Positions 6,883 to 52,538 of a stretch of 64,000 nt of DNA are shown piece by piece. How positions within the stretch are numbered: the first letter of the stretch is position 1; each line of letters opens with the position of its first letter. A program made the position numbers and the translations under genes. Source of the DNA: Tubiluchus corallicola (Eukaryota; Animalia; Priapulida); assembly GCA_030141605.1 (NCBI GenBank), contig JAQGDQ010000407.1:126942-190941 (forward strand). Direction: 5' to 3'. The notes beneath the pieces were generated by a model. The model saw only the letters and a list, made by a program, of their open reading frames with translations, was not told the origin of the DNA and did not search any database.

Positions 6883-9800
6883 ATCATCATCATTAATATT
6901 ATTATAGGCTTAACTCCTACTTGCTTTGTTGTTGATGTTCCACCAAGTGTTACGGAATCAGGGATAATGGTGAATTATCCTATGCGGGATACAACTACAT
7001 ACATAGAACTTAATAATGTGATCACTACGGACTTGACTCAAATAACAGTAGGCATGGTAAGTAAGGTTTACCTAAATAATTCAAGTAGCTTGTTTGAATT
7101 TTTCACAAGTGTTTTAATTAAACCTAAATTTTATATTCTTTTATTCATCACATGGCATTGACATTTTTCTGGCGCTCGACAGAAGTTGCCAATTCAGCAG
7201 AAAATTTTTATGAGACGTGAAAAGGTTTCTGAGTACCATAAAGTTTTTGTGCGTTTTCACTGCAAAAAAATCAACCACTGAACAATTTTAGCGATTGTAA
7301 CGCTGTTTGTTATAGTACCATGTACATTTTAAAAGTTGTTGTTGGTGTTTGTGTTGGTGTTCAATCTAATGATCGACGTTATCAGAATTTATCTTTAATT
7401 TATCATTAATTTCTGTAAAAAAAAACATGAGACGGGGCATAAATGATGAACTAAAAATGATTCAGCCAATAGAAAAATGTCAAAAGAAGTATAAAGCAAT
7501 GATTTTCTATAAATACAAGACTCACTAACTTTTTATTGCAACAGCTATAACACTATCCTGGTACAGATTATCCATAAAACATTGATTAATTTTTAGAGCC
7601 GTGTAAACGTCGCATAATCTAAAACTTCTTCTTCCTAATATTTGCATTGACGCATCTTTCTTCCTTTCCTATGCGATCTAATCTTTTCTTTTTTTCTTTT
7701 ATTCACATATCAATGGGATTACACGAACTTTTGCTTCTCTGATTCACTGTAATACAATTTTCCTTTTATGATAACAATAGTGCATGAAACATGACATTAC
7801 CGTATGATGTAACAATATTGATAGTTTGTCGCCATGTATTGATGCCACTATTGTACTGAATGTGATAACAAATAAAACTTCCAATGCTGTCCTTATTCTC
7901 GTTTCATTAATTTTTGTATCGCTTTGGACTTTGCTAGAAATCAGTTGTCGATCACGGGGCTTAATTGCAGATGGATGTGCCGAAGCAAAAGGCCTGTGTT
8001 CTGTTCTTGTTGCTTTGTTGCTTCCTCCTCCTCCTCCTCTTCCTCTTCCTCCTCTCCTGTTTCGATTCTGCTTTTCTCTTGATGTTTGTTCTTGTTCTTA
8101 TCTTTGTTTTTTAATGCTACGTTGCGTTCCTTTATATAGTTTATGAATAATGTTTGGCACCGTGTTTTCTATTTTTTAGTGGGTGAAAACAAATGATCCT
8201 ATGAAATTTGCACTGCTCGGGTATGGAGCTGGAACTACAACTGCCGACTTCGACAATGAATTCTTAATTGCCTGTTCTGGGAATAACCTAGTACTTATTA
8301 GAGACAGTGAAGTGACGTAAGTTGTTATTAGGGAAACAGGAAAATAATTTCTACCCTAGCATACAGTGTTCTCGGAAATCTTTCTTTCTGCATATAAAAA
8401 ATAGAAATAACAAAGCTGCTGCTTGCGCAGTTTACAAATGCACAATTATTTAGTTATTATAAAGATAATAATAAATATCAAAATAAAGAAAACACTAATT
8501 ACTCACATCGTGCCTCTATAGCAACTTAATAAATAAATCTATGGAAACGTTGTACAAACGTCAGTCTGTTTAATGAGATTCGACCTAATTTACAAATTCA
8601 CAAGTAAGTTTCACAGGTAAATTCACTCAGTTGATCTCTTGTAACAGCAATATACTAAAAGCTTCTACCATATTTTATGTTGAAATCTTCGTTTCAACAT
8701 TTTTTTTAAAGTTCGCGAGTTTTTGCTTCGGGAAGAAACTGATCGCAATATCTCCCTAAATCTCTTGAAAAAATTTTGGGCTTTCTGGAATAACTGATTA
8801 TGTCTGGATCTGGACGAGTAGAGCTCTGGAACACCAGATGCTGAAGGTGAAGGTATTGGTTTCAGTTTGGCAGCTTTATGGTTAACTTTGATTCACCTTC
8901 AGAAGTAGGAATTTTTATCCATTTTCTCATTTCAACATTGTGTTTCCACCCACTTCCTGCTAGTTTCTTGTCACAGTGATTGTATTTAACCTTGCCACAC
9001 ACACCGCTCAGCGTCCTAATCAAAGCGCCAAGGGAGGTCTTCATTGAAAATGATTTCTGATAAAGCAATGACAATTTACCCAGGTTTAATGCATATTTAG
9101 TAGTACCAATTTAACTAGTTTTTAACGAACTTGTCCCTGCGCTGGATTTCAGTATTACTAATCTATGCAGCTTAGCAGTTATCATTCCCGACATTATTAA
9201 ATATATTACCTAGTAAATAAAAAAGTTAATAATTTGATAAATTAGTGCATTCGTGTATTATACGTATTAATTCTATTCTTGACTTTTTCAGCAGCTTTGC
9301 AACCCACTGTAACTTAACGCAGTCAGCAACTAAGGGGTAGTTCCAGTTCTCTTTCTGAAATACGTTAAATGACGACGACTCATCTTTCTTTTTCCGCTCT
9401 CACACTCCTATGTTTGTACCGAATAAAAAAGTCTACTACGTGGCCTGACTAACCCAGCTACCATCGTTACGTGCAGTCAAAACCGTGCTAGGTACTTGTT
9501 CTGTGGCCTGGCCTAGCGTCACGTTAACAAATACCACGCTGATAACTTCAAGTTTCAAACATTTATTACTGACACAATATAGGCTACACTTTATAGGCAG
9601 GATAGAAAAAATTCTCCACTTTTGCCGACTTTCAGCTCATTGGCCTCTGGTCAATTACAATGTCCTCGTGGTCATTCCTCTGTCAAACAACAGTGATTCT
9701 ATCTGAAATCGAGCTATGAACCACTATTTCATTTCATTTAGAATTATAGACCCTGTTTGTTGCTGATTTCTTATTAACTGATTATTTTAAGCAAAAAAAT

Positions 9801-12438
9801 CTTGCATGTTTTTCCTTTTATTTATTTGATATTCAAACACTGAGTTTAGTTGGACTTATGAGGTCATCAACTCTTTTTGTCAGAAACAAAACTGGGGATA
9901 CAGTACAATATGGTAGCACATTATACCTTGCGACTTTTTCAGATCTGATGGCAACAACTTCTGCTCAACCATAAGGGACGACCAATGGCATTATGTCACT
10001 GCTTCTCACAATACTGCAACAGAAGAATATTGGCTTTCCTTGGATGGCATGTTTGCAAGTAAGTAATTTTCTTTGCCTCGCAATGGTTTCAGTTTAATTC
10101 TAATTGCAAGTTATCATTTATCTTGGAAGTCGAAATGTTATTTTATATATTGAAGTTCCTTGTACAAAATGCAATACACTTTTGGACACAACTTCAGTGA
10201 TTGCGACGCTTTGAGTGGTCCTTTGGCAAAAATTTTGTGAACACTAAGATAATAAATTGCAAATTAGAACTGCATTTCACTTACAAACTTTACGTTTTCC
10301 CTAATTTAATGACAGCCGAATACAATTGAGACAATAATACATTAAACGCAAAGCTTCTGGCTTCTAATTTCTATGTTTATCTGGGAAAAATTGGACGATA
10401 TCAACGATATAAATTTTATTTTTGCAATGCTTGCTTTTTTACGTCATGTATTCGTATAAATAATTCACAGCCTAGTCAACGCAGAAGCTTGACGTCCGAC
10501 GCTCAAAAAATAGGAAAACCTTCTAGAGTAGGCATGTCTTTCTGTCGGCTGCCAAATTTTATCACCCATTCACAGTGTATGAGTTCTTTCTCCCTTCTAA
10601 ACGCTACCCGCGAATGTTTTTGTGTATCATAGGCCTAAAAATTTTTTAAGATGATTAACTTCTTAAATAAATGTTGAAGTTCTGCTTAAACAATTACAAA
10701 GAAACTGTAAAGACAGCACGAACAATGTCCACTACTACTGACACGAAAAATAACCTGAACATTTTAGTGAAACGAAAAATAGATGTCAGTTCTTACAAAT
10801 TAAGTCACTGTTTCACAATGGCAATTACTATTATAGTTTTAGGATTTTTATACTGAGAGACTTTAAAATTAGTGTAAAAAGTATCAGACAGATCGTGTTT
10901 TAAATGGAGAAATTTAAAATAATTCTCCTGCCATGTTAGCCCACTATTAGCCCTGCCATATTAATTTGAAGAACAAATAACATAATCGAATGATTAAGTC
11001 TGGCATTGTCAAAAAAAGTAAAATTTAGGAAGATAACTTTTCAAAGAATAATTTTTTTCTTTGGTTTTCTAAGATCAGTAGTCTTTACTGAAACATGGTG
11101 AATCCTACAAACTACATTAATTTCGTGAAACTCAAACTTTCTACCTGCAGGGTTTACATACAAAAACATTGCTGGGTCTAATTCCAAACGATATGTTATA
11201 TACGGTACAACATACGATAAGATATAGTGGGGCGTATAGTTCAAATGCTCGCAAATGAAATTTACACTTTATTTCAGATATTACATAGCATTTTTATTCT
11301 TATTATTCAGGTGGTACCTTTATTTCTGATCATGGGATAATAGAAACCGGTGGGCGACTGTTAATTGGACAAGATTTAGATCCTACAACTACAATTCAAC
11401 CGGACTATCCCTTTTCAGGAACTATCACTGGCATTACCATACATGATAGCAAATTATCCATGGACACTATAAGTATGTAAACGTACATACATAATATTGA
11501 AATGTAAAAAAATATGATCAGTAAGTTCAAAAAATGAATATCGTTGCATTTGTATGTATATATTCTTGTGTGTGTTCTTAGTACTTTAGAACTAAGTCTG
11601 TTAGTTGCAAGATAATATGTGTATAGTGATGCCATTTTTATTATATAATTATCAGAGATAAACTAAAACAAGAAACAGAATGTATTAACAAGGAGAGGTT
11701 AAAATAACCAAAGTAAACAAAACAATGATTGCACTCAACAAAAGCGACAGCAGGAAGCCATTGGTCTCGGTGGCATTGCTAAAAGGGGGGTGCGGTGCGC
11801 GCCGGGCGGAAAATTTCAGAGGATGGCATTTTGATCAAGTGCCGTGAAAAAATTGATTCTGTCAGAATAGTAGAAAAGCAAACTCCTGACAATTTAATTT
11901 AATGTTGCTTAGAGGGTTTGCTAATTAGTAATTTAATGTCGTTGCAATTTTGTAACATATATTAGATTTGAAACTTTTTTGAAATTGGGCAAAATCTGCA
12001 ATTGTGAGTACTTTATTCGTACAAAACTGTAATAAGGTGATATAATTTCGTTAATGTACGCCATTTAATGGCATGTTGTCACACGACGGCAGAACACTGT
12101 AGTTTCTTACTAAGTAATAGTAATGGGTTCAGCACTGGATATGCCTACATTACATTATTTCATAATTTCCAGATACAATGAGGCTATCCTGTATAAATAC
12201 CGGAAATCTCTTCACTTGGAATGTTGATCCTATGATGTTGGTTGGTCTCAGTACGACAAATCCGTCAACCTGCTTGCCTTCCTCAACAAGAGTTTGTGCG
12301 CTGACAGAAGAGCAGCTCAACGTGCTCTTTGATTACATACTTGAGAATGATTATCAAACATCTTCTCTTATTTACATCATCTTTAATGAAGTTAAACATA
12401 TCTTAAATGACTATCTGTTTACAAATAGGTTCTATTAA
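5665..12438 (+). CDS. Secreted pentraxin/LamG-like (concanavalin-A fold) protein, ~318 aa, 7 coding exons
   Basis: Exons 5665-5725, 6266-6331, 6908-7056, 8180-8316, 9943-10058, 11311-11472 and 12173-12438 splice in frame (957 nt). Motifs in pentraxin order: signal peptide MLIAGILLGVAFTVEA, YP..TTTYIEL..LTQITVGMWVK, GYGA..DNEFL, DDQWHYV..SLDG, IETGGRLLIGQDLD..PFSGTITGITIHDSKLS..I, C..GNLFTW. The end of the last exon is less certain. Confidence 0.82.
5886..5992 (+). mobile_element. Degenerate tRNA-derived SINE-like fragment
   Basis: tRNA-like head with B-box GTTCAAATCC and loop CTTGTAA. The downstream part (caactttttc..ctttcaaatttggtat) recurs at ~59085-59145. Confidence 0.35.
6477..6892. repeat. 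Compound (GTT/GAT/GTC)n microsatellite
   Basis: Visible trinucleotide run inside pentraxin intron 2, ending about 15 nt before the 6907 acceptor. Confidence 0.97.
8357..8630 (+). repeat. Dispersed repeat, copy 1 (copy 2 at ~31396-31730)
   Basis: Shared blocks tgttctc(g/a)gaaatcttt, ttactcacatcgtgc and cctaatttacaa..tcaca.gtaa. Confidence 0.6.
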
Positions 12439-14074
12439 TCCGTTGCTCTCTTTGTGCTTTAAAAAACTAAAACCTACTGCTCTGTCTTAACTCTTAGGTC
12501 ACATTCTGAGGAATAACACAAGCATTCTGCAAAAGCAGTACGTTTGGTAGGTCCTTAATGCGCAGTAATGTTCTCGGTAAACACAAAATCGTGCATTGCT
12601 GCATATGTTCGCAATACGGGACATTCCAGATCTGTTGCAGTTGTCGGTTCATCACATGTTTTGCACACGCTTTATGATGATTTTAATGCACAAGAAACAC
12701 ACCATTTTTGACAGATTGGTGATGACGTATTAATCATTTCAACAGTGCATATTCATGCTTCCTTGAGTGTGCACGCTCTACAAAATGATGACAAAAACAC
12801 TGTCCGTCAGAATGCAATAGGTAGAGATATAGGCTATGGAACATGACAAAATCCTTCACTATTCACTAGTTAGGCCCTCAACTATAATTTTATTGCATCA
12901 ACAGCAAAAGCAGTATCATCCTCATCATTATCGTCATCTCTCGTTTTTATCTATCTGTCAGCCATGTCAGAAAACCTTAAAAAATACAATCTCAGACGGA
13001 AAGATAAATCAGAGACGTTTTGCTTTAAAAGAGTACGTCTAAAGATTGTTTAGTTTCGATAGCTGAACTACAGTTGGAGGTGTCCTCAAACTGCTTTATT
13101 ACAATTGTTAAAGAAACTAATGATAAAGCTTTAACTGCATTCTGCATAGTTTACTATAAAATGTTATCTATACGGTATGTACAATGTGCTGAAATAAAAA
13201 CCAGAAATAAAAAAGCAAACAAAATAATTAAACAAACAATCGTTCCGCAAACTTAACTAACCATAGTTTTGAATTTTGATCGCACAGGTAGCTGTATAAA
13301 CATCATAAGCATAAACATAAACAATATAATCATATATGAACATATAAAAATTAAGACGCAATACATTATATGTAACGATTAATTTCCTAATTCGAACTTC
13401 TTGATGTGTGAATGGTTAATTACTGCAAAACTGGTTAATTGCTGAAGAATTCCAAACAAACAAGATGCTTTCCTGTGCTCAAGAATTACAGAGCAGACGA
13501 TTAATACAGTCTTATTATTACGTGATAATACCCAAAGCTATCACATAACATAGTAAAATAACCATAACAATAGTTACGTAATATCAACTCTAATCTATTA
13601 AAAAAGTACAAGTTCAACGTTGAGGCAAACAGGCTTATCTCTAAATAATATGCACTATGCAGCTAGTTGATCAAAGCAGCATCCTTCCTCTGAGTGTCCT
13701 GTAACTCCTGTTCCCGATGTCCACTCCATACCATAGCTTCGGACACTAGATTCACCAACAGCATATATATATAACATAATATATATGTTGTGTGTATATT
13801 CCAGGATATTTACCATAAACTAGTAAACATCATTTGTTTAGATATTAAGGCTAATGTTTGCTAATTACTAACTCGTGACGTGCATCAGAAAATGTACACA
13901 AGTTAATTACGCAATACTGAAAGTACTTACTTACTTATTGTCATTGATAATAACTGTATTAACATAATGAAATGCCATTAGTATACAACATTAATCATTA
14001 ACCCTAAATCGCACCACCTAGTCCAAAGATATTTCACACGTAAAGTTTTCTACAGATGTGATTTAAACTAAGTT

Positions 14075-17485: not shown

Positions 17486-17553
<68 letters not shown>
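17372..17553. repeat. (ATT)n microsatellite
   Basis: Visible run. Confidence 0.97.
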
Positions 17554-17555
<2 letters not shown>

Positions 17556-17940
17556 GTCTCATCATATGAACACTGAAAGATGCATCCCAGCTTAGAGAGA
17601 TTTGCTTCAACACTGACCACGATATCTGAATAAAGGCTAAGCTAAACAAGCATAATGTTTTTCAATAATTTATGTTTAAAATCTACATCTGTGGTCACCT
17701 GCTACAGAAGCTACTGCATCGTTCTTTCTTCTTAAAAAAAGAATTACGAGGCAAAAAATCGCGTTTTCAGTAGTTTTAAGAATTTTCAAAAAAAAAATCA
17801 ATACGGTTATGAATTTCTAAGTACTTTTAGTCACCCAAATGATTTTAGCATATAATTTTGCTTTTATGCTAAAATTTTGAAATAACTTGCGTTTCTTCTT
17901 TCTGTAATGAATAATTTGTGCTTATTTTATTCCAGCAGCC

Positions 17941-20900
17941 ATGGCAAAAGAAGGAAAAGAGCCGTTTTCTGCCATGTCTCTTAAAGTGAGAATGATTCTT
18001 ATCATCGTAGCAGTCAGCATTCCAATTCTTGTTGTTATTATACAAAATTCTATTTATATCAGAAGAGCTAAAGCCAGTAAAGAAGGTAAGAAGATTGTTT
18101 GCTATCCATGAGTGTGAAACAAAATGCCTTGGATTGTTGTTCGACACACTTTGACCTATCTTAAAATTCTTCTTAATAAAACACGAGAGGAAGGTTTTTT
18201 AAGGCCACCTAAAGACGTTTCAGTCCTGTTGCAGTTTCGTTTAGTTCAGCAAATTTCTTGTATCAGTCATGCTGTGGAGTTTAACAACTAATCACAATAC
18301 CTAGGAATTCTTATGTCGCGTAGAGAAGTAATTAACAAACAAATGGACAGAAGCACTTGTGCTCGCCTTAGGGATGTGTGAACACAGGTGTCGCAACTTT
18401 AGGCCTGCTCTGAACACACCAAAGAATGAACACGTAACAAGCCCAACAAAACAACTAGAAAAATGCATAGACAAACGTGTAACTCGTGGCTTAGAGGTAC
18501 AAGGAGCAAAAAAGGACAATTCGAAAACTCAAGAAAGGCAAATGGTTGGCGTCTGTTACTAGTTGTTGTCAGTCATATTTACGTTTCCGCACTTTGTTAA
18601 AACTTTCACTCGTGGTGAACATTGGCAAGTTACGCGAAATCTTTTTTATTATCTTTCACGTAATTTTTCCAAGTCACAAATGTGAGATAACGTCTCAGTT
18701 CTGTGTGTCTATTTCAGCTGAGTGTTATTAAATATAAACTGTCGCATATGACTCCTTATTATAAACCCAATTGTGTGTGGTTAAGGCGTTTAATTGTAAT
18801 TGCCGAAACGGTGTATTTTGTCGCCCAACCTCGCTGTCCCGTTATACCCCAAATTGAGTACAGTCTATCTGGCATCCTGAATCAGTATGCTTCAGCCTTC
18901 AGAATAAAGATAGCTGAAAAAGATTTATTCCCAGGCGAAAATACAAGAAAATAATTGAGCGTCTAACAAGCTTATCAATTTAAATAATTCTTTATATCCA
19001 CTTTTTGCATAAATACTCTAAATAAATGGAAACACAAAGTCTAGATATAAGCAACGATAAAAACGAATTTTTCAATGCGTATCGTTATCGTTATCGTTAA
19101 CATCTCTGCCTTAATTTCGAAATTTTTAAAAATGCTATTAATATTTTGAAGTAGAAAGTTTGATCGTGTTTGAGAGGTCAGCACAAAAGCATTTTGTAAG
19201 TAGATTGCACAGCCACAATAGAGGCTGTGGGGAGGTGACTGTGTAATATAGGAGTGCTGTTCCTTCAGAGTCTCCTACACACCCCACAGTTTAATGATAG
19301 CGTATTTGAAACTTTTGTACTTTTCTCAAAATAATTTTTGCATAAAAGCATCATCATGTGGTCATCATCTGTTCAAACTGCTTAAAAGTGTACAGTCTGA
19401 ACAGTCTGAATAAAATGTACGGGATGTGAAAACTATTTTAAGTCAAAAACGCTAAAAAGTTATACAAGTTCACATCTTGTTAGATCACAAATAATCGCTG
19501 ATGCTATGCGCATGCGCAAGTTCATAGGTGCATTATTACAGAAATGTAACCGGGACGTTATATGGCTGTCCCACTAAAACCCAAACAGCAGTGGTATAGT
19601 TCTTCAAAGTTGATTGGAATGCACTCACTCAAGTAATGGGCATAGCAAATGTCATGCACCATGGCAACTTTTTCTAACGCGTTTTGCACATTTTGTGCAA
19701 AAAGCACAAAACTTGTAAGATTTGAAAAGTTTGCAGCAAAACTCTGGGAGAAGGAAGCAGTGTGTAAAATATGAAAAATGTTTTTTTAATATTGGTCTTT
19801 CTGAACAACACAACCCATTTCAATACATATTTCCAGGAATATCGCTCCTTGATGAGACACGTATACGCACATGCGCACGCACACACGCACACACGCATGC
19901 GCATGTATATATATAGGTTTTATGTGTCAAATGTAGACCTGCGTTAACTCAAATGTAGATTTAGGTAATTCAAATGTGTCTTGGTAACTCAAATGTAGAC
20001 TTAGGTAGTTCAAATGTGTTAACAATGGTTTTCAACAAATCTTAAGCGTATTTGGTAAGTCAAATGTAGACACATGTCAAGTCAAATGTGACATTGGTAT
20101 CTCAAATGTGGATAGGTGGTAAAGTTTAAGGATGTTAAATTTAATCTTCTTTAATTTCAATTTAATAATTGCTCCTAATTTAAAATAACAACGTTATAGG
20201 TCTACTAATAGTTCACTAATATTTTGCAAACTTTACATGCCATTGGAACTGTTAGAGAAAACAATGCATTCTTAAAATAAACAATGTTTCTTGAGAGAAA
20301 CTAATTCATTAATGCAGTGCTAATGCATTACTTAAAAAACTAACTAGTGATTCACTGTTCATTGGGAAGTGGAAGCCGATTTATTCTTTTCTGCCGACAT
20401 TTTTTGTAAAACTTTTACAAATAAAATGTAGAATTGGTGTACCTATATATTAATAATTGTATAATTGTTAAATTATTTATGTACAACACTTTTAAGTGTT
20501 CTTATCAAATAAACATTTTGATAAGTTATCAAATATAAAATAGTTGCAAATTAATTAACTATAATAAAAATTGATGCTGCCTATAGCGCCATGACCGTAA
20601 AATATAATTTTAATTTGGTTTTATCTTTTTGTAATTTGCACTTAAATAAGTTAATTACCGATTTATTCAAAGTGCCGCATCTACATTTGACTTACCTAAG
20701 TCACATTTGAACTTTCCTGCGTCTACATTTGACGTGTAAAACCTATAGAACACTGTAAACGCAAAACTGTAATCGAAAAACGTTTAATTTCAGGATTGGA
20801 GGAGTTAGCCAGAAATGCTAAATTTGCTCTGGAGTTGAACGATATTGTACACGTTTTACAGATAGAACGTGGTACAACAGCTTTGTACGTCAGTTCCGGT

Positions 20901-23900
20901 GGAGACAGCAAGGTGAGATCAACAACAACAAAAACAAAGAAACAACATAATGAAGCCATTTAAACAAGTCTGAATTTTTGAAAATACGGTTGCACTATGT
21001 TGGATCACCGTTGCCTGTTTTTGCCTAAGTTCGCGCAGTTTTAACGTACTCAAGGGTAAATTTGAAATCTGAATTTTTATCTTAAACTTGCCAACTGTTA
21101 TTACAACACTTTCTTTTTACCGTACATGAAAATCGGAAGTATGTGAAAAATCGTTCTGTCTTCCCTTAATTATAATTGTCCAACGTTAACCGCAAAGCTT
21201 CTTGATTGTGGTACTGAACCTTCAGAATTACTGAACGTTCTTCAGTAAGTGAGGGTTTATAAAAAAATGATAAAGAAATTTATTTGTGTGTGATTCATAC
21301 ATTTCGTAATCAATACTGCACCGTAACGTCGTGAAAAGACAATACTGTTGTGTATTTAGTATCATAACTATTACGAGCTTCGTTGAGCACAACCGATCCT
21401 TTCATTCTGATCACGCCCCCCTTTTCAATCAAATTGGATTGTTCATCTTGCGACATATGCGTGCAGGTGACTCGCTGGCAAATAGCTAAAAGATTGGGAA
21501 ATTACCAAATTGACGCAGACAGGCATCACAAAGCCAATATATATATGCAGAAGTCCACGAATGTGCCCTATCGTCGATCGAAGCAATTTATATGACTTAT
21601 ACTATAGAAAAATACCGCATAGCTTTCTCTCCACTAAGGCTAAAAGCGCATCACTAAGAATTGACACCGGTAGATGGCATTGCGAAGATATAAACTAAAG
21701 ACTCCGCACATGCGGAGAGATACAAACAGAAAAACATGTATTAATGAACTATAACTTAGCTACTGAAATTAGAAGGAAATGTCATAGTGTGAACTTTTCT
21801 GCACTGTCTAATATTGTGGAGAACAACCATGCATTTGAAATTTGTTCACAAGTGCCACAAACTTTTGAAAACTAACAGTGGTTTTACTAATGTTTACTAA
21901 TCGCTTAAAATATCAAACTAAAATGTACAAACACTGTTTCAATGGTATAAAGTTGGTTCAACTATTTTATTTTATATGCTAATATGATCCACCTGTGATA
22001 AATTCTTGAAAAGAATTGACGGTAAATTTTATTATTTTCTGCTACCCCAGTTTTTGTATTAATCATTGTATTTATAGTCAATAAATTACACTACTACTAA
22101 CAAAACCTTTCTATTAGAGACATGCCAATTAATACTACAAAAGAATTTCTGATAATTAGATAATAGATTAAAAACTTAATTAACGGCGAACGAGTCATCA
22201 CATAATTTTCAACAGGAAAAATATTCAACGAGCGTGTTGGACGTGTTTGCGAAAGCGAAAATAGAAGTACAGTGCTACTGTAAGATATATAATGTGTTGT
22301 GCTAAAACTAGCCAAGTTTTATGATAAAAATACTAATTTCAAGTTTATCGCTGTGCTCACGCATGAGCTGTCGCACGTGTGTAGTTCGTCACAAACGAAC
22401 ACCTCTGAATAGAGAGGTACAACACTCGTTTTTTATGCAATGCGTTTTCGAAATGCAGGTGCTGCTACCCGTCTAACTAGCGAAAGGCGAAATGCATGTC
22501 ACAGCGAAGAACTAGTGGCGCGAACGTGGAATTGTATTTGTGTGGTAATAATTCTTTCACGTAAGTCACTTTAGAAAAAATTGTATGTTTCCTTTCATTA
22601 TTTTAAGGAGTAGATTGTTTTGACCTGTAGTTTAAGATTGGACCCGGTTTTGCTTTAATATCTAGTGATCAACAGATAATTATAGCATATGTTGATACAT
22701 GTATTATAGTTTTTCTAATACATGACAATAATTTCACTCTTAAGGCATACGACTCGCTAACTGAAAAGTACGCACAAACAGATGCAGCTTTTGACAAAGT
22801 GGACATTTGGTTAAAGGAGGACGCAGTAGATTCGAACTACAAGAGCAAAGACAGACTGCATAGTTATGTAAAGGTAAGCAATTGAACTTGCTGTGGACCA
22901 CTCATGTATCTGTAACTACCCATTTAACTGTGATACACAGACATTTCTCCTTTTTTGCTGTACCAAAAACTCCCATTGAAGTTGTTCGGGTCTCTAGTTT
23001 GATCGTCCCCTCCCAGGTAGAAACACTGACCATAGAGTTTAATTTTGTATGATAACCAATAATTAATTTTTGAATACAAATCCATTGCAAAAAAAACTAA
23101 ATTAACTGTAATACCATAGCATTCCCGTATTCATTTCGATGACAAATTCAACGCAAATTACTAGTATACTCAATACGTAAATAGTAGAGTGAATAATTAA
23201 AGCAATTTAATAAGTTTGAATTAAATATACTAAGAATAAAACTACTTTTACAAGTTGCATTGTTAAGTAATTTATATGTATGATGTGTTATTGGCATCAA
23301 AGCAGGGCTCTGTAATTGGTCGCCTAACAAAATCCAGGGTTAAAACCTGCATGGAGATCATGATATATGGCAAGACTTAGTAGAGTGCATACTCATACAG
23401 CCAGTGTAGGATGTCAATCAAGTACGTGGCCTGAATCGTACAAAACCGAAAAAGAATTTTTTGGTTCAACAAGTTTTTGGTATATTTTCGTGAAAATTCT
23501 TAAATACCCGCATTTTAGCGTGTATGTTTTAGTATGTTTGAGTAACCATATCATGTATGTTGTTATGCTATGCATTTGCAGGACCATCGAAACAGCTTAG
23601 ACTGGTCAACTACAACAGTACAAGAAGAAATTGCTTTTTACACAAAAATTAACAAGTGAGCGATTTCATTAAATTATTGTTCACTACATCCACTTAAAAT
23701 TAACAAGATGGTTTTAGTGCAATAGAAGTATTGTATGCTATACTTCTTCTTCTTCTTCTTCCCAGCTTTTCCCTATGCCGGGTCACCGTTGTGAATGAGT
23801 CTTCTCCACGCATTCCTGTTGTTGACCATCTCTTCATTTATGTTCTTCTCTCTAAGGTCTCCACTAATACATTCAATCCATCTCCGCTTGGGTCGTCCTC

Positions 23901-26900
23901 TTCTTCTATTCCCCAGCACTTCCATTTCCATGACCTCCCTTCCCACATGATCTTCACCGACTCTTCTTTTCAGGTGTCCATACCATCGCAATCTTGCGAG
24001 GCTTCCACTACTTTTACTGTTCCTCTGATATTATTATTTCTAATTTTATCTCTTCTTGTTATTCCCACCATCCATCTCAACATCCTCATCTCCACCACAT
24101 CCATTTTCTTCTCTTCGGTCTTCTTTAGAGAAGCTGCTTCCAGCCCATAGATTAGAGCGGGTCTGACCACTTCTATGTGGAGACTCATTTATAGAAGGTT
24201 TTGGCGGATGCCCTTCCTGACCCTAACCCTCCCTATTTATCCGGGCTTGGGACCGGCACTGAGTTGAGCTGACTTGACCCCCCCCCCAATGGCTAGGTTA
24301 GAAGTATGCATGATATACAATAGGCTAAACTAATCTAGAAGAAGTAGGTTATGAAACGTTTATTCAACACATGATAATGAATAGAATTTTGCTTTGCAAA
24401 GTTCAAAACTATAGCTTGTCGTCTAATAAAAAGTTTTCAGTTTCAGCTAAAAACCTTAATTCTTATTAAAGCAATGGTAAAGACTCTTCGGTGAAAGCAT
24501 TTTGCTTAAACATTTTTTGTAAATTGAAGAATGCACGATCCATTGAACGCAAACTATATGTAAAATGTTGTTGTCGTCACCATCGTGGCCGTCATTGTTG
24601 CTAATTTTCTTGACACTGGAAGACCCATATTTTTATGACAGACGTTTGCTAATCTTCGCTTTATTCCCTGTTTTAGCGTGTTAATAGACTGGATTGGAGA
24701 AACTGTTTACAAGTCGCCCCAAAGCGCTAAGTACGTGTGGAAGACGCTGTTTTCCTTTTACTTACTGATAGTAAGTAAAGAGCAGGCTGGAATAGAGCGA
24801 GCTCTTGGAAGCACTTACTTTGCATCAGGTATTTTCTTTAAACATGGTCACGACGCTTTGTCACGTTATTCATGATATCACATGAAATTCTTTCGGTTAC
24901 ATAAATAAAAGCAAAAGGTAATTAGAAAATAAAAAAGCCGGTTTGTTGTAATGTATACGCTCAAACCAAAGTTGCGTTCCCATATCTATGTTAGTTTATT
25001 CTGCAAAAATACAAATTTTCTGTAGTCTACAATTACTACATCTACAGATCTACTGAAATAAAAGTGCTAGAAAATAAGTGCTACAGATAACTACGTTACA
25101 CTAAAAAGCTAAAATGCATACATGCATTGTTGGTCCAATATTGAGTCGAGGAAAAGCCAGAATGTCAGTAAAAGGTAGTGTACATAACAAGTTCCACCTA
25201 TACAATGTCAGGGTAGAAAAAGTAGTCTAGAGGTTGAGCTACAGTCTAATATATTGTGGCTTCTAATGCATATACTACCTTGAGAAGAGGTAATGGACCA
25301 AAACATTTGCACCTGCAACAGTGTCATTTCTCAATAGTTCAAGCTAAAAGAATATATTTGTCATATAAAACTATGCTAGCCTAGAGGCAGTGATCACAAT
25401 CACCAGTTCACGGCTGCATCAAGCGTTCGTTTATTTTAAATTAGGCTAATTATTTTACATAGTGCCATAAACCAAGTTTCATCTGTTACGGACATTTGAC
25501 ACTTTAACTCGTGAACAAAGATAATCTGTTCTTCAAACAAACAAGCAGACAAACAAACAAACAAACAAATAAGCACAGTAGTGAACTTTACTTAACCTTA
25601 CTTTTGCCAAAGCTCGTCACACTTGTTTAATATTGACCATAAAAACACCTTTAAGTTCGACGCCATTTTTTTTTAAATTTTGTGTTCCATAGAACCAATA
25701 TAATCATATAAAAATTGTAAATTGTAAGTTCCCGGCGATTAATTTCTTTAATTTCATCCTTGTAGGTAAGCTGTCTGATGAAGACTTCATCTGGTACTAC
25801 AGAGAAAGGACATTGGGCGAGGCCTTCCTAGAGACGTCAGCGGATTATCTAAATGAAGTTGATGTAACCTATAGCAACCTCAGACACTCTAATCTGTACG
25901 CCACTTTAGCCAAAATGCGAGCTGAGATATCGAGAAATCAGCACAATGAACCGGACACCCAAAGAGGGCTCTACTGGTTTGCGAACATGACACAGTACAT
26001 TAATCAGTTACAGGTAAGAAACTTCTATGCTGCACATTTAATGCCTTATAAACCCATGACAACTTAATTTTCTATGCATCCGTTTCCTAAGTCTTCGTTT
26101 TGTTTAATTATGTGTTAAATTATCATAACATAATTATAGGCATGCATTACATACTTCATTTGCTTAAATTTTAACTTTTGTTTGACAATTACCCCCGACT
26201 ACAGCTCCGTGCCATGAGATGAGAGGGGATTGTTACAAGAACTTTGTTGTAACACAGCTACCACTGTAAACACAAATCATTAGGAACCAGAAAGACACGA
26301 TACAATGTCAACTAGATAAGAAATGAACTACTTTAAAATTCCCAATCATTGAAGCACACAAAGAATATTTTACTCTGCTTTTTATATTTAAATACATTAA
26401 CAACATCACCAAACCATTCCAGAATAACAGATTTACCTTTTTTCCAAATCCTATCGCTAATTCCAGAACAAGCAATCTAAAACAAATTAGGACAAATAGC
26501 TACTATGGAGCGAACTCTGTAATCAAATAAGCAATTCTACTTTGGAATTCTCTACCATTACAGGTTAAACAAATCAAGTCCTTATCAGCATTTAAAACAA
26601 AATTAAAATCACTAATATTAACCAGATATGATATGCCATCACACCAGCACGACAACATACACACTAATTCAGAATTCATATATCCACGGCCATATTAATT
26701 AAATCGTAGTTTTTCATTTTTTGTGCATATTTGTAAATATGTTTGATTTTTTTCGTCGTTACTTTCCATTACTGCACAGTAGTTTAGATTGAACTAACGC
26801 ATTTGCCTTTAGCAGTGTAAGTTTTTATTAACTAACACTGATTGATTATCTCTGTAAAGTTTTTATCAGTGATTATCAATGTATTTTAATGGCAAATAAA

Positions 26901-27953
26901 GATTATTATATATATATTAATAATAATATATATATATTACATATATATATATATAAGATCTTTTAAGAAACGTAGAAATAGTTGTCCTACGTAAAGTGGA
27001 TTTCTATACAGCAATGTCAGATCAAAACGAAATTGTCGAATTTTGACGACAAATAATTTGTGAAAAATCCCAACAGATGGCAAATACACAACAGGCACAA
27101 TAATTTAAGCACACTAGAGCAGCTGTATACTAAAGAAACATAAGATTGACCGACAAAAAGATACACTAGGTATCATAGCATTTTGTAAATCCAAGAAAAC
27201 TGATTTTGTAGTAAAGTACTGTTATCATATCTGAAGTGTTAGTTATGTATCGGCCGTATGTACAATCCTGCCCATATGTGCTGCCAATACCCTAAATGAA
27301 ACACCAGCACCTGATTAAAAGAGAGCATTTGGGTTACTCGCCTATTGAGTTTTTCTCCGCTCAGCAGACTGGATACGTCACTGAGAACACCATTTACAAT
27401 TGTCACTGAACCTTTCTTTCGTAAAAAATTAGAATATGAAGTAACTCAATTGTGATGTCACAAAATTAAAAACTGGTAAAAACTTATTAAGACGAAAACG
27501 GGAACAAAAACGAGAATGGCGAAACAAACCTCTCTAAAGAGTTACTTTGCACGCGTAGCCCCAAAAATTCTTGGGCTAGAACCATAAAGGGCTGTGTAAA
27601 CCGGCACTTGAGCAAGGTATGTTTTCTTATGTTACTTCGATATGACTATTGAATAATGTTACAAACTCTGCTGTTTTGTTTAGGAAACGAATAAGAGGGT
27701 GGGAGAGGAGGTGGTCTCTGAAACGCAAGAAGACGATGCATCTAGTAAAGACAAACGAACCATTGTTGCCGGATCTGTTCTCATTGCAATAGTTCTTATT
27801 ATTTGGCCAATCATCATCATTCTGCTCATTATCATTGTCAGAACTATTCATAAGTTCTATAAGCGCTTACAGGATGAAAGTAGGCAGTTAAACCAGGGGG
27901 CAGTCAGTGCTGTTACCGCTGCACCAGGCGAAAAATACGTCAGTAAATTCTAA
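17941..27953 (+). CDS. Two-TM membrane protein with extracellular NIT (nitrate/nitrite-sensing) domain; NIT-GC-like ectodomain without a visible cyclase domain, ~378 aa
   Basis: Exons 17941-18085, 20794-20912, 22745-22873, 23582-23655, 24677-24828, 25766-26013 and 27684-27953 splice in frame (1137 nt), all GT-AG. TM1 is ILIIVAVSIPILVVII. NIT motifs: IVHVLQIERGTTALYVSS, YAQTDAA, HRNSLD..EEIAFYTKIN, LIVSKEQAGIERALGSTYF and WFANMTQYINQL. TM2 is IVAGSVLIAIVLIIWPIIIILLIIIV. The last splice/stop is uncertain (alternative donors near 27880 and at 27939). Confidence 0.85.
19916..20743. mobile_element. Non-autonomous TIR element with subterminal tandem repeats
   Basis: TIR GGTTTTATGTGTCAAATGTAGAC ... 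GTCTACATTTGACGTGTAAAACC, flanked by TATA on both sides. ~21-bp TCAAATGTAGAC repeats lie inside the left end and are inverted at the right end. Confidence 0.75.
22111..22658 (+). mobile_element. ~600-bp MITE family A (TTAA-flanked, Kolobok-like), 5'-truncated copy
   Basis: Homologous to 36066-36616, 46300-46929 and 49650-50268. Ends GGACCCGGTTTTGCT-TTAA. Confidence 0.8.
23744..24298 (-). mobile_element. Internally deleted RTE-clade non-LTR retrotransposon (5' UTR fused to ORF C-terminus and (AAG)n tail)
   Basis: Minus-strand VVRPALIYGLE...EMRMLRWMVGITRRDKIRN and RWYGHLKRR...RRRGRPKRRW are RTE C-terminal motifs. Tail (TTC)n at 23744-23761. RTE-type 5' UTR motif gccggtcccaagcccggataaa..gaagggcatcc. 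Imperfect ~20-bp TSD at 23723-23743 and 24299-24318. Confidence 0.85.
24947..25312 (+). repeat. Dispersed repeat family B, copy 1
   Basis: Near-identical inverted copy at ~54198-54607. Confidence 0.85.
26270..26630 (+). mobile_element. Degraded L2/CR1-group LINE 3' fragment
   Basis: LLWNSLPLQVKQIKSLSAFKTKLKSL-type C-terminal motif at ~26535-26620. Confidence 0.55.
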
Positions 27954-29329
27954 TTAAGATAATTTGGTTTTAATTGACATTCGTCTTGAAATCACCTAAT
28001 GATTTCGTCTAATAAAAACCAAGAACAAATATTACTGACTGGGTGCAGTATGACTGCAAATGGGGGATATAATATTGAACTGGAAACACTTTGTGTTTAT
28101 GTTCGGAAATTAAGGAACTGATGAATATAAATCATTGAATGAAATGACTAAGGCAAAACAAATTAAATTCAAGAAGTCGTGAAACGACTGGTGCACAACA
28201 TCATTGAATAAACAAATAAAATCTAAAAAAAACTCCTTATTACTGTAATTGTGACCACAGTGATTCTGTTTTCTGTTACTGTGTGTTCTTCCGTGTGTTT
28301 TTTCGGCGTGGATCTGTGACTTTTATATATGATTGTATACTGTTTTAAATGCGGCATTTTTATGCGTAAGTAATATAAAATACTCTTCAAAAATTAGTAT
28401 TAGAAGCTTTATCTTATTTTTTCAACTTCTTTCTTTCCTCCTGATGTTAAACTACGGCTGTGGTGGTTCTGACACGTCGTGCTTTTTCACTATTTTAATT
28501 GAGAGTTTTTTTTTCATTATTACGAGTATTCTTTCCATTAAGAATCAAATCTGTGTTATTTCCATTCCTTGTGATATTATTTCACATTAATTACATCTTT
28601 GTCCAGACATATGTAACTAAATCATCTCGGCGAAAAAAGTACAAAAATTATTTTTTTGGTAATCGGGATCTACTCGAAAGGTGCATTATGGGCAGGGGTT
28701 TTTACAGGGTTAATAAAATGAGAAAAGAAATTAACAAACTTCGTATTTCAAGCGCAGAAATGGTTGTTATAACTGCCTCAAAAATTTAAAAAAATCTCTG
28801 AAAATTAACTGTTCCTTCAATGGTATATTTTATTTGACATGTAATTGTTATCATGAACTGTAATTCCAGTATTGTAAATCGAGTGTGATTATTTTATTGT
28901 TAATTAGAATTTGTTCAGTATTGTTTGCAAGAGCAAGTTAGATATCAATAGCAGATTGTTTACTGTTATTTACCATTTATTTCATAATTTTTGTTTTGTT
29001 ACTTAGTCGTCTGCTCACATAAGCTGCAGTTTCTGCAGAAAAGGCCAAAAAGATAGAATGTCGCTCGATTTTGCAGCAAAGTGTGATTAGAGTTCATATA
29101 TGTCTTTATACCTTTTTATTCTACTAATTATTTTCAATTTCCTGTTAAAATGTACAAAGATACTTATAGTTTATAAATAAATTGTACTAAACTAACCTAC
29201 TTTTCGCACTTATTGTTTTGCATTAGTGTATATGATAACTTCTGATTCGTCCTCAGCGATCTCAAATTAGAATTTCTTCTATTTAAGTACATCACAGTTC
29301 GAAAATTCCATGCCAAATTTTAGAAATTC

Positions 29330-29455
29330 TGGAATATTCCAACATTTGGATGTAAGCCAGCGCTTGTCCTTTCTTCAAAAAAGGTGCCAGGCAATTAAAA
29401 AAATTACCGGCCAGTATCTCTTCAACCATGCTTATCTAAAGCGTTCTAACGAATA
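29330..29455 (+). mobile_element. LINE RT N-terminal fragment
   Basis: Frameshifted FKKG...NYRPVSL.PCLSKAF motif. Confidence 0.5.
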
Positions 29456-29789
29456 AACATTGTCGTTGTGAACAACCGAAAATCATTAAAAAATACATTT
29501 AATTTTCAATTAGATTAACAACCTGTAAAACAGTTATTACTGTAGAAGATATGGCTTTTATCTACCTGGTACCTATTCTAAAAATGGGCTTAGTCTAATA
29601 GTGAACGGTTGCTCTAGCTTTGCTATATTCTGTGCAACTAGTTGGCTGTTACAAGACATTACATGCAGACATCGTTTTACTTATATTTCTATGGAAACTT
29701 CTACATCAATAAACGTTTAAAGTTTATTCTACTGTTATGCCTTTCGTCTATAGACAGTCATCTATTAATAAGTAAACATTTTATTTTCA

Positions 29790-36065: not shown

Positions 36066-36616
36066 TAGGAAAACAGGATGATTTTTCATATACACCCCAC
36101 TTTCAAGAACGGAAAAAATACATTTTAACCTATAATGCTGCAAAAGCGTATTAAATAATTAAATAATAGACTAAAATCTTAATTAACGGCGCGGGAGCCC
36201 AACTAGTGATGATATCACAAACTAACATAATTTTCAACATCAAAAACATTCTATGAGCGTGTTGAAGTACAGTGCTATTGTAAAAGATTCAGTGTGTTGT
36301 ACTAAAACTAGACAAGTTTAAGATAAAAATTCAAATTTCAAATTTACCGCTGTGTTCACGTACGAGCTGTCGAACGTGTGTAGTTCGTCACAGACTAACA
36401 CATCTGAACTGAGAGGCACAGCACCTGCTTTTGTGCAACGCTTTCCAAAATGCAGGTGCTAGTGCCCGTCTAACTGGTGAATGTCGAAATTGTGTTTATG
36501 TGGTAATAATTCTTTCACGTAAGTCGTTTTTGAAAAAATAGTATGTTTCCTTTCATTATTTTAAAGAGTAGATTGTTTTGATCTACAGTTTAGGATTGGG
36601 CCCGGTTGTGCTTTAA
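36066..36616 (+). mobile_element. MITE family A copy (Kolobok-like)
   Basis: Homologous to the other three copies; ends GGGCCCGGTTGTGCT-TTAA. Confidence 0.8.
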
Positions 36617-37495
36617 GAACATTTATTTCTGCAGCTGTTATTAAAAACCTCGTTTCTGTCCTGTGATATTTTCTCAGGACTTTGGATGGGACATTTTTTA
36701 AGGCTAGACGCAAAACATAGTTCAGGTGTTGCCAGCTCGATTTCGTATAAAAATAAAAATGTATTTTAGTACGAGGATGCAGCATTTAGCACGAAGCACA
36801 CTTTGAAAAATTTATTCACGCAAAGTAAGCCTAAAAAGAAGCTTCCGGTTTGTCCGTCGAACACCCACGAAACTAACCATAATTATATAAACGCAATAAA
36901 CAATTGATTAAATGTAATAAAAGTGCTATAAATTTTAGCACAAAGGTTAAAGCTCAGTTTACTGTACTTACGCAGTCACGAAGCTAATTACCTCAACGCA
37001 ATTGTAAATGTAATATAGCAAACAAGTCCCTTCTAAAAGTACGCAGTTAATAATTCATTAGGATTTACAACTGGTTTTAAATGGGATTGTCTACTTAATG
37101 TGCATGATTAGTTGCAAATTGCAACACACAGTCAAGTCGGCGAAGTGAAAGTACATATACATTTAGTTGATCGCAGAATTTATAAAACCGATGAACTCAA
37201 AATCCGCATTTAAATTTGACAATGAATATCATTAACTGCTCGTTAATCGTTACAGTAACCCAGAAATAAAGTCGTACGTAAGCTTTGATTTTTAATGCAA
37301 TAGTATTTACTTCTGTAGGGTGTTGATAGATGGTAGACGTTAGTCTATGTCCAAACGTTCTAGAATCGATTTATTTAAAGTGATGATTATGTGAGTTATC
37401 TAGTGTCACTATGTTGTACTTCACCTTGGCTTTGACCCAAAGGCCTGTATGCTAAGTACAGTAATTGAATTTAGTTGCAAACAGTGAGCGTTATA

Positions 37496-39656: not shown

Positions 39657-40328
39657 TTATTTTTGAGGCACGTAGTATCGTGGATCTGTGTCATCATCTC
39701 CTGAGGTGTCCACCCTTCCATAATCGTTATCACGCTTAGAAAACAGATGTGCACCACCTAAAGAGTCAAATCCACGCTTTGTGAATAAATGTGACCCACC
39801 CAGTGTGTCAAATCCACGTTTGTTGAATAGATGTGATCCACCCAATGTATCAAATCCACGTTTCGTAAACAGATGTGATCCACCCAAGGTATCAAATCCA
39901 CGTTTAGTAAACAGATGCGAACCACCTAAGGAATCAAAGGCTCTTTTTCCACCAAATAAGTGAGCGCCACCCAAACTGTCGAATGACCGCTTCCCTCCAA
40001 AAAGGTGAGCGCCTCCTAAACTGTCAAAACCTCTTTTGTCAAAGAGGTGCGACCCGCCGAGAATATCGAATGCCCGTTTACTAGCCAATGCCGCATTGGT
40101 TTCCTCTGCGGAGTCTTCTGCCATGTCCCATGGTGGTTGATTCTCATCCGCGTCGTATAAATCCTTAAGGTTCTCAAGTTCTTGCAACTGCCTCCCTAGT
40201 GTGTGCCATTCCCTCAGCTTCTGTCTGAGCACCTCTCTCTCTTCGTGGCGCCTATCGTCAGCAACTACGGAATCTAGAGGCTGCTGGCTGTCTAGTTCAT
40301 CACCAAACAAGGAATCAATTGCTTGTTC
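39657..40328 (-). CDS. Pedal peptide/orcokinin-type neuropeptide precursor, last coding exon (8 peptides)
   Basis: Acceptor tcatttcag|GAA at 40328, then an acidic spacer, then KR-flanked AFDILGGSHLFD, GFDSLGGAHLFGG, SFDSLGGAHLFGG, AFDSLGGSHLFT, GFDTLGGSHLFT, GFDTLGGSHLFN, GFDTLGGSHLFT and GFDSLGGAHLFS. The (F/L)D(S/T)(L/I)GG core matches pedal peptide/orcokinin-B-type peptides. The signal-peptide exon(s) were not resolved. Confidence 0.88.
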   Translation of the reverse strand, partial: EQAIDSLFGDELDSQQPLDSVVADDRRHEEREVLRQKLREWHTLGRQLQELENLKDLYDADENQPPWDMAEDSAEETNAALASKRAFDILGGSHLFDKRGFDSLGGAHLFGGKRSFDSLGGAHLFGGKRAFDSLGGSHLFTKRGFDTLGGSHLFTKRGFDTLGGSHLFNKRGFDTLGGSHLFTKRGFDSLGGAHLFSKRDNDYGRVDTSGDDDTDPRYYVPQK

Positions 40329-41768
40329 CTGAAATGACATGAAATGTAGCGTTAAGTTTTTTTTAAAAATCGTGCAAAAATTATCCCTATGATGACATCC
40401 CTATATGTCCTGTCTTTCTCCTATCAAGATTTCTCGGTAATTTGTGAACTTATTTCTATATGAAATTTGGTTACACTGAGGTCAAAATTACCGAAAAGTG
40501 TTTCTGACATGACTAAATTGGCTTTTAGACTGTTCATCAGTATCAACAGGTGGCAAGAAAAAACTTACTAAGTCAGTTGCGATCAAGTTGCACTAAATCA
40601 TTGATACCCACGCTTTTAAACATTTTAGGAAATTTAGGATTTTTGCCAAGTCTAGTTAAACATTCATTTGAAAATTTATCTTTTTTCAATTTTGAAGTTG
40701 TTTATGATCCGTCCTATATACTGAAATTTCACTGCAAACTTTAAATTACTATTAGAATAATACACAGATATGTCGAAACTTATTCCAAGTCCAAGGCAAG
40801 TAGCATAACAAACCCAAAGTCCAAGTCCAAACATATCACTGAAAGAATGAAATTTCGAAATTCATCTCACTCACTGGAAGCACAAATCTAAAGCTGTGCA
40901 ATTCTCGCTAGCTGATAGACCTATAAATTATAACTATGTGTGAAGACCTATCCAAAGTCTTTTCAGTGATTAACTCAGCTCAGTTTGGGCTACGTCTCTA
41001 GCTTTCTCTTGAGTATTAACATTATTTTGAGTTTGTTATAGGTGACTTAAACAGACATCACGTCACCCCCACGTAACCCTATAAGGAGCCCCGTGATAGG
41101 ATATTTAGCGTACTGGATTCTGCTTAATTACTTGACTTTTTACGATGTCTTAATACGTTTGTTTCGTATTAAAAAAACAGAATAATTTTTCATTTGCGTA
41201 GTCAGCACAAAATTCTGTAACTTAAGCAATCCGAGCACGGAATTGATTTTTCATTTTATTATCATTTTGTTTTTGACAGGCTTTAGAGCTAGTGGATAGA
41301 ATCACTCGTGAAAATACCGCGTCAGTGCGTACTGGCCTTAACATTTCGAAACTTTTGGACATGTTCTGCGCAACAATGGCGTATGTTTTTAGGATTATTC
41401 AGTGGTGTAAAATCAAAGAAATAATGTCCAGGTTTTCGGACAACTATTCGTGTATAACACACAGGGTGGTGACCAGCAGCATCATTTTCTCGCTTTTATA
41501 ATTAGGCCTAACAATAAAATATAAATAAAATTTTTTCATTGTTTTGTTGGATCTTCGTTTAACGCTAGAGAAAAACTTAGGCCTATTTCTTAAGGTTTTG
41601 CCTGGGGCTCAGGCAACTGAACTGCTTTATCACTTTGTGGCTGCAATTTGTATAATGTAAAAAATGACGCTATAAATTTGCAGAAGTCTGGTGTTAATCA
41701 TAAACATGACAAAGTGCCCAGTACGTCCAGCGCGAGCTTTCGTCCTTCGTCACTTCGTCACATGCATA

Positions 41769-46299: not shown

Positions 46300-46929
46300 T
46301 TAAAAGAAGGCAGGATTATTTTTAATATACTACCCTTATTTTCAAATACGGTAAAAAGTACACATTTTAACACCAACAATACCGCAAAAACGTTTCTGAT
46401 AATTATATAATAGATAAAAAACTTAATTAATGGCGGGCGAGCCCAATTATTGATGACATCACAAGCTAACATAATTTTCACCAGCAAAAACGTTCCAGGG
46501 GCGTGTTGCACGTGTTTGAGAAAGGGAAAATTGAAGCACAGCGCTCCTGTAAGATATTCAGCGTGTTGTACTGAAACTAAGGTTGTTTTAAGGTAAAAAT
46601 TCAAATTTCGAATTTATCACTGAACTAACGCATGAGCTGTCTGTCGAACGTGTGTAGTTCGTCACAAACTAACACATCTGAATTGAAAGGTACAGGACCT
46701 GTTTTCTGTGCGACGCTTTTCGAAATGCAGGCGTTAGTGCCCGTCTAACTAGCGAATGTCGAAATGCATGTACCAGCGAAGAACTAATGGCGCGAACGCG
46801 AAATTGTGTTTGTGTGGTAATAATTCTTTCACGTAAGTCACTCTTTAAAAATATTATGTTTCCTTTCAATATTTTAAAGAATAGGTTGTTTTGACCTACA
46901 GTTTAACGTAGGGTCCAGTTTTGCGTTAA
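46300..46929 (+). mobile_element. MITE family A copy (Kolobok-like), full length
   Basis: TTAA at both ends (46300-46303, 46926-46929); homologous to the other copies. Confidence 0.82.
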
Positions 46930-52418: not shown

Positions 52419-52538
52419 GTCTACGGCCAAATCACGATGAAAACACCGGTTCTCGTCTGATCACCGAAGTAAAGCAACGTAGAGCCTGGTTAGTACTTGG
52501 ATGGGTGACCGTCTAGGAATACCAGGTGCTGTAGGCTT
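52419..52538 (+). pseudogene. 5S rRNA-derived sequence (head of a SINE, not a terminated 5S gene)
   Basis: 120-nt match to metazoan 5S (GTCTACGGCC...GATCACCGAAGTAAAGC...GTTAGTACTTGGATGGGTGACC...GTGCTGTAGGCTT). No oligo-T terminator follows. Confidence 0.9.

Follow-up and report, generated by a model that had tools for sequence, protein, structure and literature searches.

Introduction

Can an animal NIT receptor do without the guanylate cyclase that serves as its output? In the portions of the literature covered here, the animal NIT proteins described are all cyclases, the NIT-guanylate cyclases (NIT-GCs). The question is raised by a 64,000-nucleotide stretch of DNA from the priapulid worm Tubiluchus corallicola (GenBank assembly GCA_030141605.1, contig JAQGDQ010000407.1, positions 126,942 to 190,941; the window in what follows), in which a + strand gene encodes a NIT domain between two transmembrane (TM) segments and stops shortly afterward. 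An earlier note, made from the sequence alone, had taken it for an intact, intron-rich protein with NIT as its only domain. This description holds: the gene is intact and spliced, its coding sequence is under purifying selection, and it is a real cyclase-less derivative of the NIT-GCs.

Gene Structure and Predicted Protein

The gene spans 17941-27953 on the + strand and has seven exons, with GT..AG at all boundaries and intron phases 1, 0, 0, 2, 1, 0. The coding parts total 1137 nucleotides (nt), giving 378 amino acids and a TAA stop, and the six introns range from 708 to 2708 nt. Its features are listed below, where X6 denotes a probable RNA run carrying the same species label, from a lineage ∼90% identical to the window.

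17941-18085, + strand: exon 1, with the ATG, a short N-terminus predicted to be cytosolic, and TM1; covered by an X6 contig.
20794-20912, + strand: exon 2, with the start of NIT (Pfam NIT positions 1-21) and the first conserved arginine, R74, in QIERG; covered by an X6 contig.
22745-22873, + strand: exon 3, NIT domain (NIT profile E 2e-6); covered by an X6 contig.
23582-23655, + strand: exon 4, NIT domain (NIT profile E 1e-7); covered by an X6 contig.
24677-24828, + strand: exon 5, with the second conserved arginine, R197, in GIERA; the X6 contig goes on for 13 letters of exon 6.
25766-26013, + strand: exon 6, with the end of the NIT domain and WFANMT, which includes N280; joined to exon 7 at GT..AG in X6.
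27684-27953, + strand: coding part of exon 7, with TM2 (Trp330), the first half of the NIT-GC juxtamembrane helix, ∼18 unrelated residues and TAA.
27880-27885, + strand: donor-like site within exon 7, GTAGGC here and GTAAGC in X6; read through in the transcript observed.
27954-28720, + strand: 3′ untranslated region (3′ UTR), continuous with exon 7, with AATAAA at 28712; its end is placed by the length of the X6 contig.

Hydropathy places the TM segments at residues ∼14-38 and ∼321-341, and the motifs lie at 71-75 (QIERG), 194-198 (GIERA) and 277-282 (WFANMT); N280 is the sole N-glycosylation sequon. After TM2 come a tail of 37 residues and the TAA. The earlier reading of seven phase-compatible exons that yield TM1-NIT-TM2, with both arginine motifs and WFxNMT, is thus borne out by the joints, the hydropathy and the motif positions. 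Pfam NIT matches fall on exons 2, 5 and 6, in order, and a NIT profile built without the orthologue described below recovered all seven exons, with E from 2e-24 to 3e-3, and no other piece of the window at E<5.

An acceptor-like site 5′ of exon 1 makes an upstream non-coding exon likely, as judged from the sequence. The X6 contig carries 89 extra 5′ letters, which find no placement on 17500-29500, and a 16-base pattern for such an exon gave one match where 1.34 were expected by chance, so the location of the exon was not found.

Transcript, Conserved Stop and Selection

A search of sequencing runs listed no RNA with the exact sequence of the window, and the transcript evidence comes from the related lineage X6. 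One X6 contig, of 723 nt, is collinear with exons 1-5 and the first 13 letters of exon 6. The other, 1148 nt long, carries the exon 6-7 splice at GT..AG and extends past the stop to 28280; a further match lies at 28581-28605, 114 letters are left over, and the contig's length puts its probable end close to the AATAAA at 28712. Splicing from exon 7 on to cyclase exons had been named as an observation that would overturn the NIT-only reading, and the spliced X6 contig instead ends in the 3′ UTR. Such contigs prove presence only, and rare isoforms can drop out of them.

The end of the protein is conserved. All 12 indels shown, of 17 between X6 and the window, lie downstream of the stop, the first at 27957. 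The database protein P0001, the orthologue (367 residues, from a 1606-nt contig), is identical at 335 of 367 positions, ungapped, and has the same final residue. P0001 differs from X6 at six of the 13 X6 replacement sites and therefore represents a third lineage. On these alignments, truncation at the same residue is common to the three lineages, namely the window, X6 and P0001.

Selection was gauged from the differences between X6 and the window; the counts come from 40 of 80 difference rows, ordered by position, and are taken as complete up to 28009. Codons 300-378 hold 16 silent and 6 replacement differences (dN/dS 0.094, Fisher p 4e-7), and the tail after TM2 holds 7 and 2 (dN/dS 0.063, p 2e-4). 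The last 18 codons (361-378), with few sites, have 3 silent and 1 replacement, and the partial list for exons 1-3 has 10 silent and 4 replacement codons. By these counts, purifying selection acts on exon 7 and the tail; the dN/dS of ∼0.1 is far from the value near 1 that, according to the earlier note, would betray a decaying duplicate.

The exons of runs X5 and X6 are ∼8-10% off the window (17500-29500), while X1 and X3 match it exactly, all under one species label. A single species name therefore seems to cover deeply diverged lineages.

Search for a Cyclase

The search for cyclase exons covers the 64-kb window, in which none was found: a profile of 51 NIT-GC C-terminal regions, run against 3481 six-frame pieces, gave a best E of 3.2, and as a control it recovered 19 of 23 left-out 30-residue cyclase pieces at E<0.01. 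Tblastn with the 51 cyclase regions gave nine scattered matches, the best with E 0.044, none of them consistent. These searches and their controls uphold the earlier failure to see a cyclase exon on to 64 kb by eye. Reading on from the alternative acceptors near 29007 and 30783, also suspected of leading to early stops, indeed meets a stop within 26 codons in all frames. At the protein level, Pfam finds NIT alone in P0001, with no cyclase family and, at E 0.01, no HAMP, MCP or kinase family after TM2.

NIT Domain, Fold and Pocket

Pfam NIT (PF08376) aligns with P0001 over positions 1-238 of 239, with 116.2 bits (cut-off 24.9) and E 4e-33. The AlphaFold2 model, computed from a 94-sequence alignment, is all helical with a confidence score (pLDDT) of 94.5, the last 10 residues being disordered. 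Its one clear counterpart among known structures, the NIT domain of Klebsiella NasR (PDB 4AKK; described in the part of PMC7496416 covered), has a Foldseek E of 7.7e-7, Z 28.4 and a root-mean-square deviation of 2.9 over 267 aligned residues, the next structure following at Z 10.5. The predicted model thus has the NasR double four-helix-bundle fold. Identity in the structural alignment is 18%, and NasR, unlike the priapulid protein, is soluble and has an ANTAR RNA-binding output.

QIERG and GIERA align with the two Arg-bearing helices of NasR, GIERA on the helix with ERA. In NasR, E175/R176 form the predicted nitrate pocket (PMC7496416, in part), and the GIERA residues would correspond to them in numbering. 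Both conserved NIT arginines are present here, as they are in 74 of the 84 other proteins that have letters at both sites in the alignment. The NIT domain would lie outside the cell, an orientation suggested by the sole sequon, N280, and by basic residues following TM2.

After TM2, the first 22 columns of an NIT-GC linker profile made from 34 sequences match the protein at 18.3 bits, a score reached by none of 2000 shuffles. A predicted homodimer of P0001 scored 0.41, and one unrelated control scored 0.60.

Relatives and Descent

A full-library search gave 2538 matches, of which the best 150 were covered. Among the 160 proteins collected, 74 have at least 40 cyclase residues, and the remaining 86 consist mostly of fragments or bacterial-type receptors. 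Thirty short records stop within 30 residues of the motif at which exon 5 ends here, and this shared breaking point suggests that the intron after exon 5, behind the second Arg helix, is shared with many animal NIT proteins.

Five short-tailed relatives, in which TM2 is complete and the tail does not resemble the NIT-GC linker, were chosen by eye, their stops being predicted: P0018 (Priapulus caudatus XP_014668357.1), P0088, P0107, P0121 and P0147. By Pfam, NIT is present and cyclase absent in all five. The contigs of the last four are 158-242 nt longer than their frames. After the orthologue, the best match among the matches listed is P0018 (LOC106809702), at 36%, and the closest named relatives are Priapulus records. 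A tryptophan at one column of TM2 occurs in all six short-tailed proteins, the present one included, and in 1 of 88 other rows, having been visible when the proteins were selected. Of the two arginines, P0147 keeps both, P0088 and P0107 one each, and P0121 neither.

In a tree of 49 of the 117 rows, the six short-tailed proteins group at 91/74, with P0001 and P0018 as a sister pair at 95/88; with the Priapulus NIT-GC P0026 (XP_014670017.1) added, support is 98/98. In a tree of 28 rows, built on ectodomain columns with a mixture model, the seven proteins including P0026 stand together at 91/88, and the six alone appear in 1% of bootstrap trees. The approximately unbiased test does not reject the grouping of the six (p 0.518), and long branches are involved. 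The seven-protein group recurs in both trees, and thus loss of the cyclase would have occurred at least once inside a single NIT-GC subfamily. By its place in the tree, nested among animal NIT proteins with the bacterial-type rows on a separate long branch, the protein is a descendant of animal NIT-GCs; a fresh transfer from bacteria was rejected.

Three further proteins were considered as cyclase-less members and rejected. P0154 keeps an S-helix-like stretch, sits on contigs of 6-10 kb and falls elsewhere in the tree; P0017 and P0022 break off at the point where other fragmentary calls stop and also fall elsewhere. A word-based search with the six-protein alignment brought no new complete short-tailed member among 27 matches, and in a protein atlas the NIT clusters were bacterial only, small clusters being beyond its resolution. 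The cyclase-less NIT proteins are probably a small family, of priapulid worms.

Comparison with Known Systems

Animal NIT-GCs have a TM-NIT-TM layout and a C-terminal cyclase, as in Platynereis NIT-GC1 and NIT-GC2 (PMC7400543; bioRxiv 10.1101/2023.08.02.551600; both in part). The present protein shares with them this layout, both arginines, WFxNxT, the apparently common intron after the second Arg helix, the first half of the post-TM2 helix and a place in the tree, at 27-36% identity. It differs in having neither the S-helix core nor HNOBA nor Guanylate_cyc (PF00211), in its 37-residue tail to a conserved stop, and in the tryptophan of TM2. Its topology had been likened to that of bacterial chemoreceptors; the TM-NIT-TM arrangement is there, but the gene owes it to its NIT-GC ancestry and is not alone in having it. 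Since PMC7400543, in the part covered, gives the layout as common to animal NIT-GCs, only the missing output domain is unusual. Bacterial NIT chemoreceptors and kinases differ further through their HAMP, MCP or kinase output, which a 37-residue tail replaces here, and the six spliceosomal introns also set the gene apart from them.

A close counterpart is Priapulus XP_014668357.1, which has a near-identical TM2, the same half helix, a short tail and no cyclase. It is a predicted model without the N-terminal 80 residues, so that the first Arg position is absent, and its tail ends differently. It is missing from the portion of the PMC7400543 supplement covered, which lists two cyclase-bearing Priapulus proteins.

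No cyclase-less animal NIT protein was found in the parts of the NIT literature covered. Outside that coverage, a 2023 paper by Monteagudo-Cascales et al., said to deal with NIT domains in eukaryotes, may list such architectures, which could reduce the novelty. The Platynereis survey, in the part covered, began from cyclase-domain sequences and so could not include cyclase-less proteins (bioRxiv 10.1101/2023.08.02.551600).

Outside the NIT family, the nearest parallel is NPR-C/NPR3, in which a receptor-cyclase ectodomain is likewise kept, the cyclase is absent and the cytoplasmic tail is short. The differences are a NIT four-helix-bundle ectodomain in place of the ANF-receptor type, two TM segments instead of one, and a predicted small-ion ligand. 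The likeness is a working analogy and implies no homology.

What the Protein May Do

We give a probability of roughly 45% to the reading in which the protein is a silent partner that pairs with full-length NIT-GCs and lowers their cyclic GMP (cGMP) output, in the manner of NPR-C. The NIT ectodomain, outside the cell, would bind nitrate or nitrite (or a species derived from nitric oxide, NO), and dimerisation would proceed through the ectodomain, TM2 and the remaining half helix. The active site of these cyclases forms between two catalytic domains, and therefore an NIT-GC paired with a cyclase-less chain would be inactive. The precedent is NPR-C, which has no cyclase and whose heterodimers with NPR-A and NPR-B suppress cGMP (PMC10334801, in part). 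Ligand clearance, the other role of NPR-C, is unlikely for this protein because the predicted ligand is a small diffusible ion.

The proposal rests on the retained ectodomain, TM2 and half helix, and on the frequency of incomplete active sites among NIT-GCs. Both transition-state residues are kept in 31 of the 44 NIT-GCs with the motif, and 13 of the 44 are without the Asn, the Arg or both. P0026, the nearest cyclase-bearing relative, has both NIT arginines and is without the transition-state Asn. These incomplete sites hint that heterodimers may be usual among NIT-GCs.

Several points weigh against the silent-partner reading. Its partner, the co-expression and the ligand binding are all proposals made here. 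The S-helix is reported to be crucial to the dimerisation of receptor cyclases (PMC1592074, in part), and its core is lost: the 21 linker-profile columns that follow the matching ones score −29.5, no match, the chain departing just before the ERxRT core. A pure decoy has no obvious need for a conserved novel tail end and an intact ligand pocket, and the lost S-helix core and conserved new tail fit a stand-alone receptor or an accessory subunit. Furthermore, three of the four distant short-tailed relatives lack at least one of the two arginines and keep little of the helix match, so that one mechanism may not cover the group.

Among the alternatives, the one that survives best, unlikely though credible, is a stand-alone nitrate/nitrite receptor in which the ligand moves TM2 and the 37-residue tail recruits another effector (a G protein, a channel or a scaffold) with no cGMP involved. 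The intact arginines, the missing S-helix core and the purifying selection on the tail, including the part unlike NIT-GCs, all suit this view. The final S-K-F would make a candidate class I PDZ ligand motif; besides this protein, however, only P0147 ends in S-x-F. NPR-C also signals through its short tail, which bears a Gi-activator sequence (PMC10212560, in part). Against a receptor of this kind, the six short-tailed proteins have no tail motif in common other than the juxtamembrane part in P0001 and P0018, and the effector is hypothetical. In an extended form that we consider doubtful, the short-tailed proteins would be a family of stand-alone two-TM NIT receptors, derived, in priapulid worms or related animals, from NIT-GCs, that dropped cGMP output and signal through short tails; with identities of 16-35% and altered pockets, this member would serve nitrate or nitrite and its relatives other small ligands.

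It is rather improbable that the protein is a positive accessory subunit, one that helps a cyclase complex with ligand binding, trafficking or ciliary targeting and does not inhibit it. The intact pocket would be in keeping with this role, as would the incomplete active site of P0026, which probably works in mixed complexes, and NIT-GCs are co-expressed in one cell type at different subcellular sites (bioRxiv 10.1101/2023.08.02.551600, in part). Yet P0026 has both NIT arginines and needs no binding helper, and catalysis is impossible in a strict dimer of which one chain has no cyclase.

A poor prospect is that the short form is an isoform of a longer NIT-GC gene, with cyclase exons beyond the window reached from the donor-like site at 27880. 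This site, which follows the helix remnant and has the full consensus in X6, could be the branch point for a longer isoform; rare isoforms are lost from contigs, and the genomic search ends at 64 kb. However, no cyclase exon lies within 36 kb downstream, whereas the six introns of the gene measure 0.7-2.7 kb, and the intervening DNA holds a neuropeptide exon and a 5S rRNA gene. The only X6 joints observed read through the site, the sequence 3′ of it is conserved as protein, and a search of longer proteins with exon 6 returned the short form only, which is weak evidence. Finally, a decaying truncated duplicate without function is very improbable. Decay often begins with loss of the catalytic domain, and the RNA evidence comes from related lineages only; against this, all seven exons remain open in frame, dN/dS is ∼0.1, three lineages share the protein's end, and the same layout recurs in a Priapulus model of 35% identity. 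The selection data largely refute this explanation.

Other Features of the Window

A dispersed repeat of ∼550 nt was seen by eye in four copies, at 22126-22660, 36150-36620, 46320-46930 and 49660-50270; the first of these, in intron 2 of the NIT gene, is very high-copy in DNA runs. Upstream of the NIT gene, a multi-exon gene at ∼6900-12440 on the + strand has exons that look pentraxin/laminin-G-like by eye, and four pieces of it gave no Pfam match. Prominin exons lie on the − strand at 292-537 (Pfam PF05478, E 1.4e-11) and ∼1432-1790, and their gene runs past the window edge. Downstream, at 39660-40330 on the − strand, an exon of a neuropeptide precursor encodes eight peptides, flanked by KR and patterned xFDxLGGxHLF, that resemble orcokinin B or pedal peptide and are similar to cuttlefish peptides with FDTLGG and FDSLGG. 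Such a precursor is in keeping with a protostome; the location of its signal-peptide exon was not found. One full-length 5S rRNA match (52419-52537, + strand, Rfam 106 bits), followed by ∼500 nt of higher G+C, is either a lone gene or a 5S-derived repeat.

Significance

The existence of a natural, selected cyclase-less member shows that the NIT sensor is of use even without an enzyme of its own. Either a second receptor-cyclase family has arrived independently at the NPR-C solution, or the gene encodes a receptor whose output is new. The ligand of animal NIT domains is debated between NO and nitrate/nitrite (bioRxiv 10.1101/2023.08.02.551600, in part). With its compact ectodomain, both arginines and a confident model, the protein is a ready construct for measuring animal NIT ligands, and the relatives with altered pockets are natural controls. 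Priapulids inhabit low-oxygen sediment. If the short-tailed proteins do form a family of stand-alone receptors, they would be a new class of animal chemoreceptor, and this member would be the dedicated nitrate/nitrite receptor of a sediment-dwelling animal.

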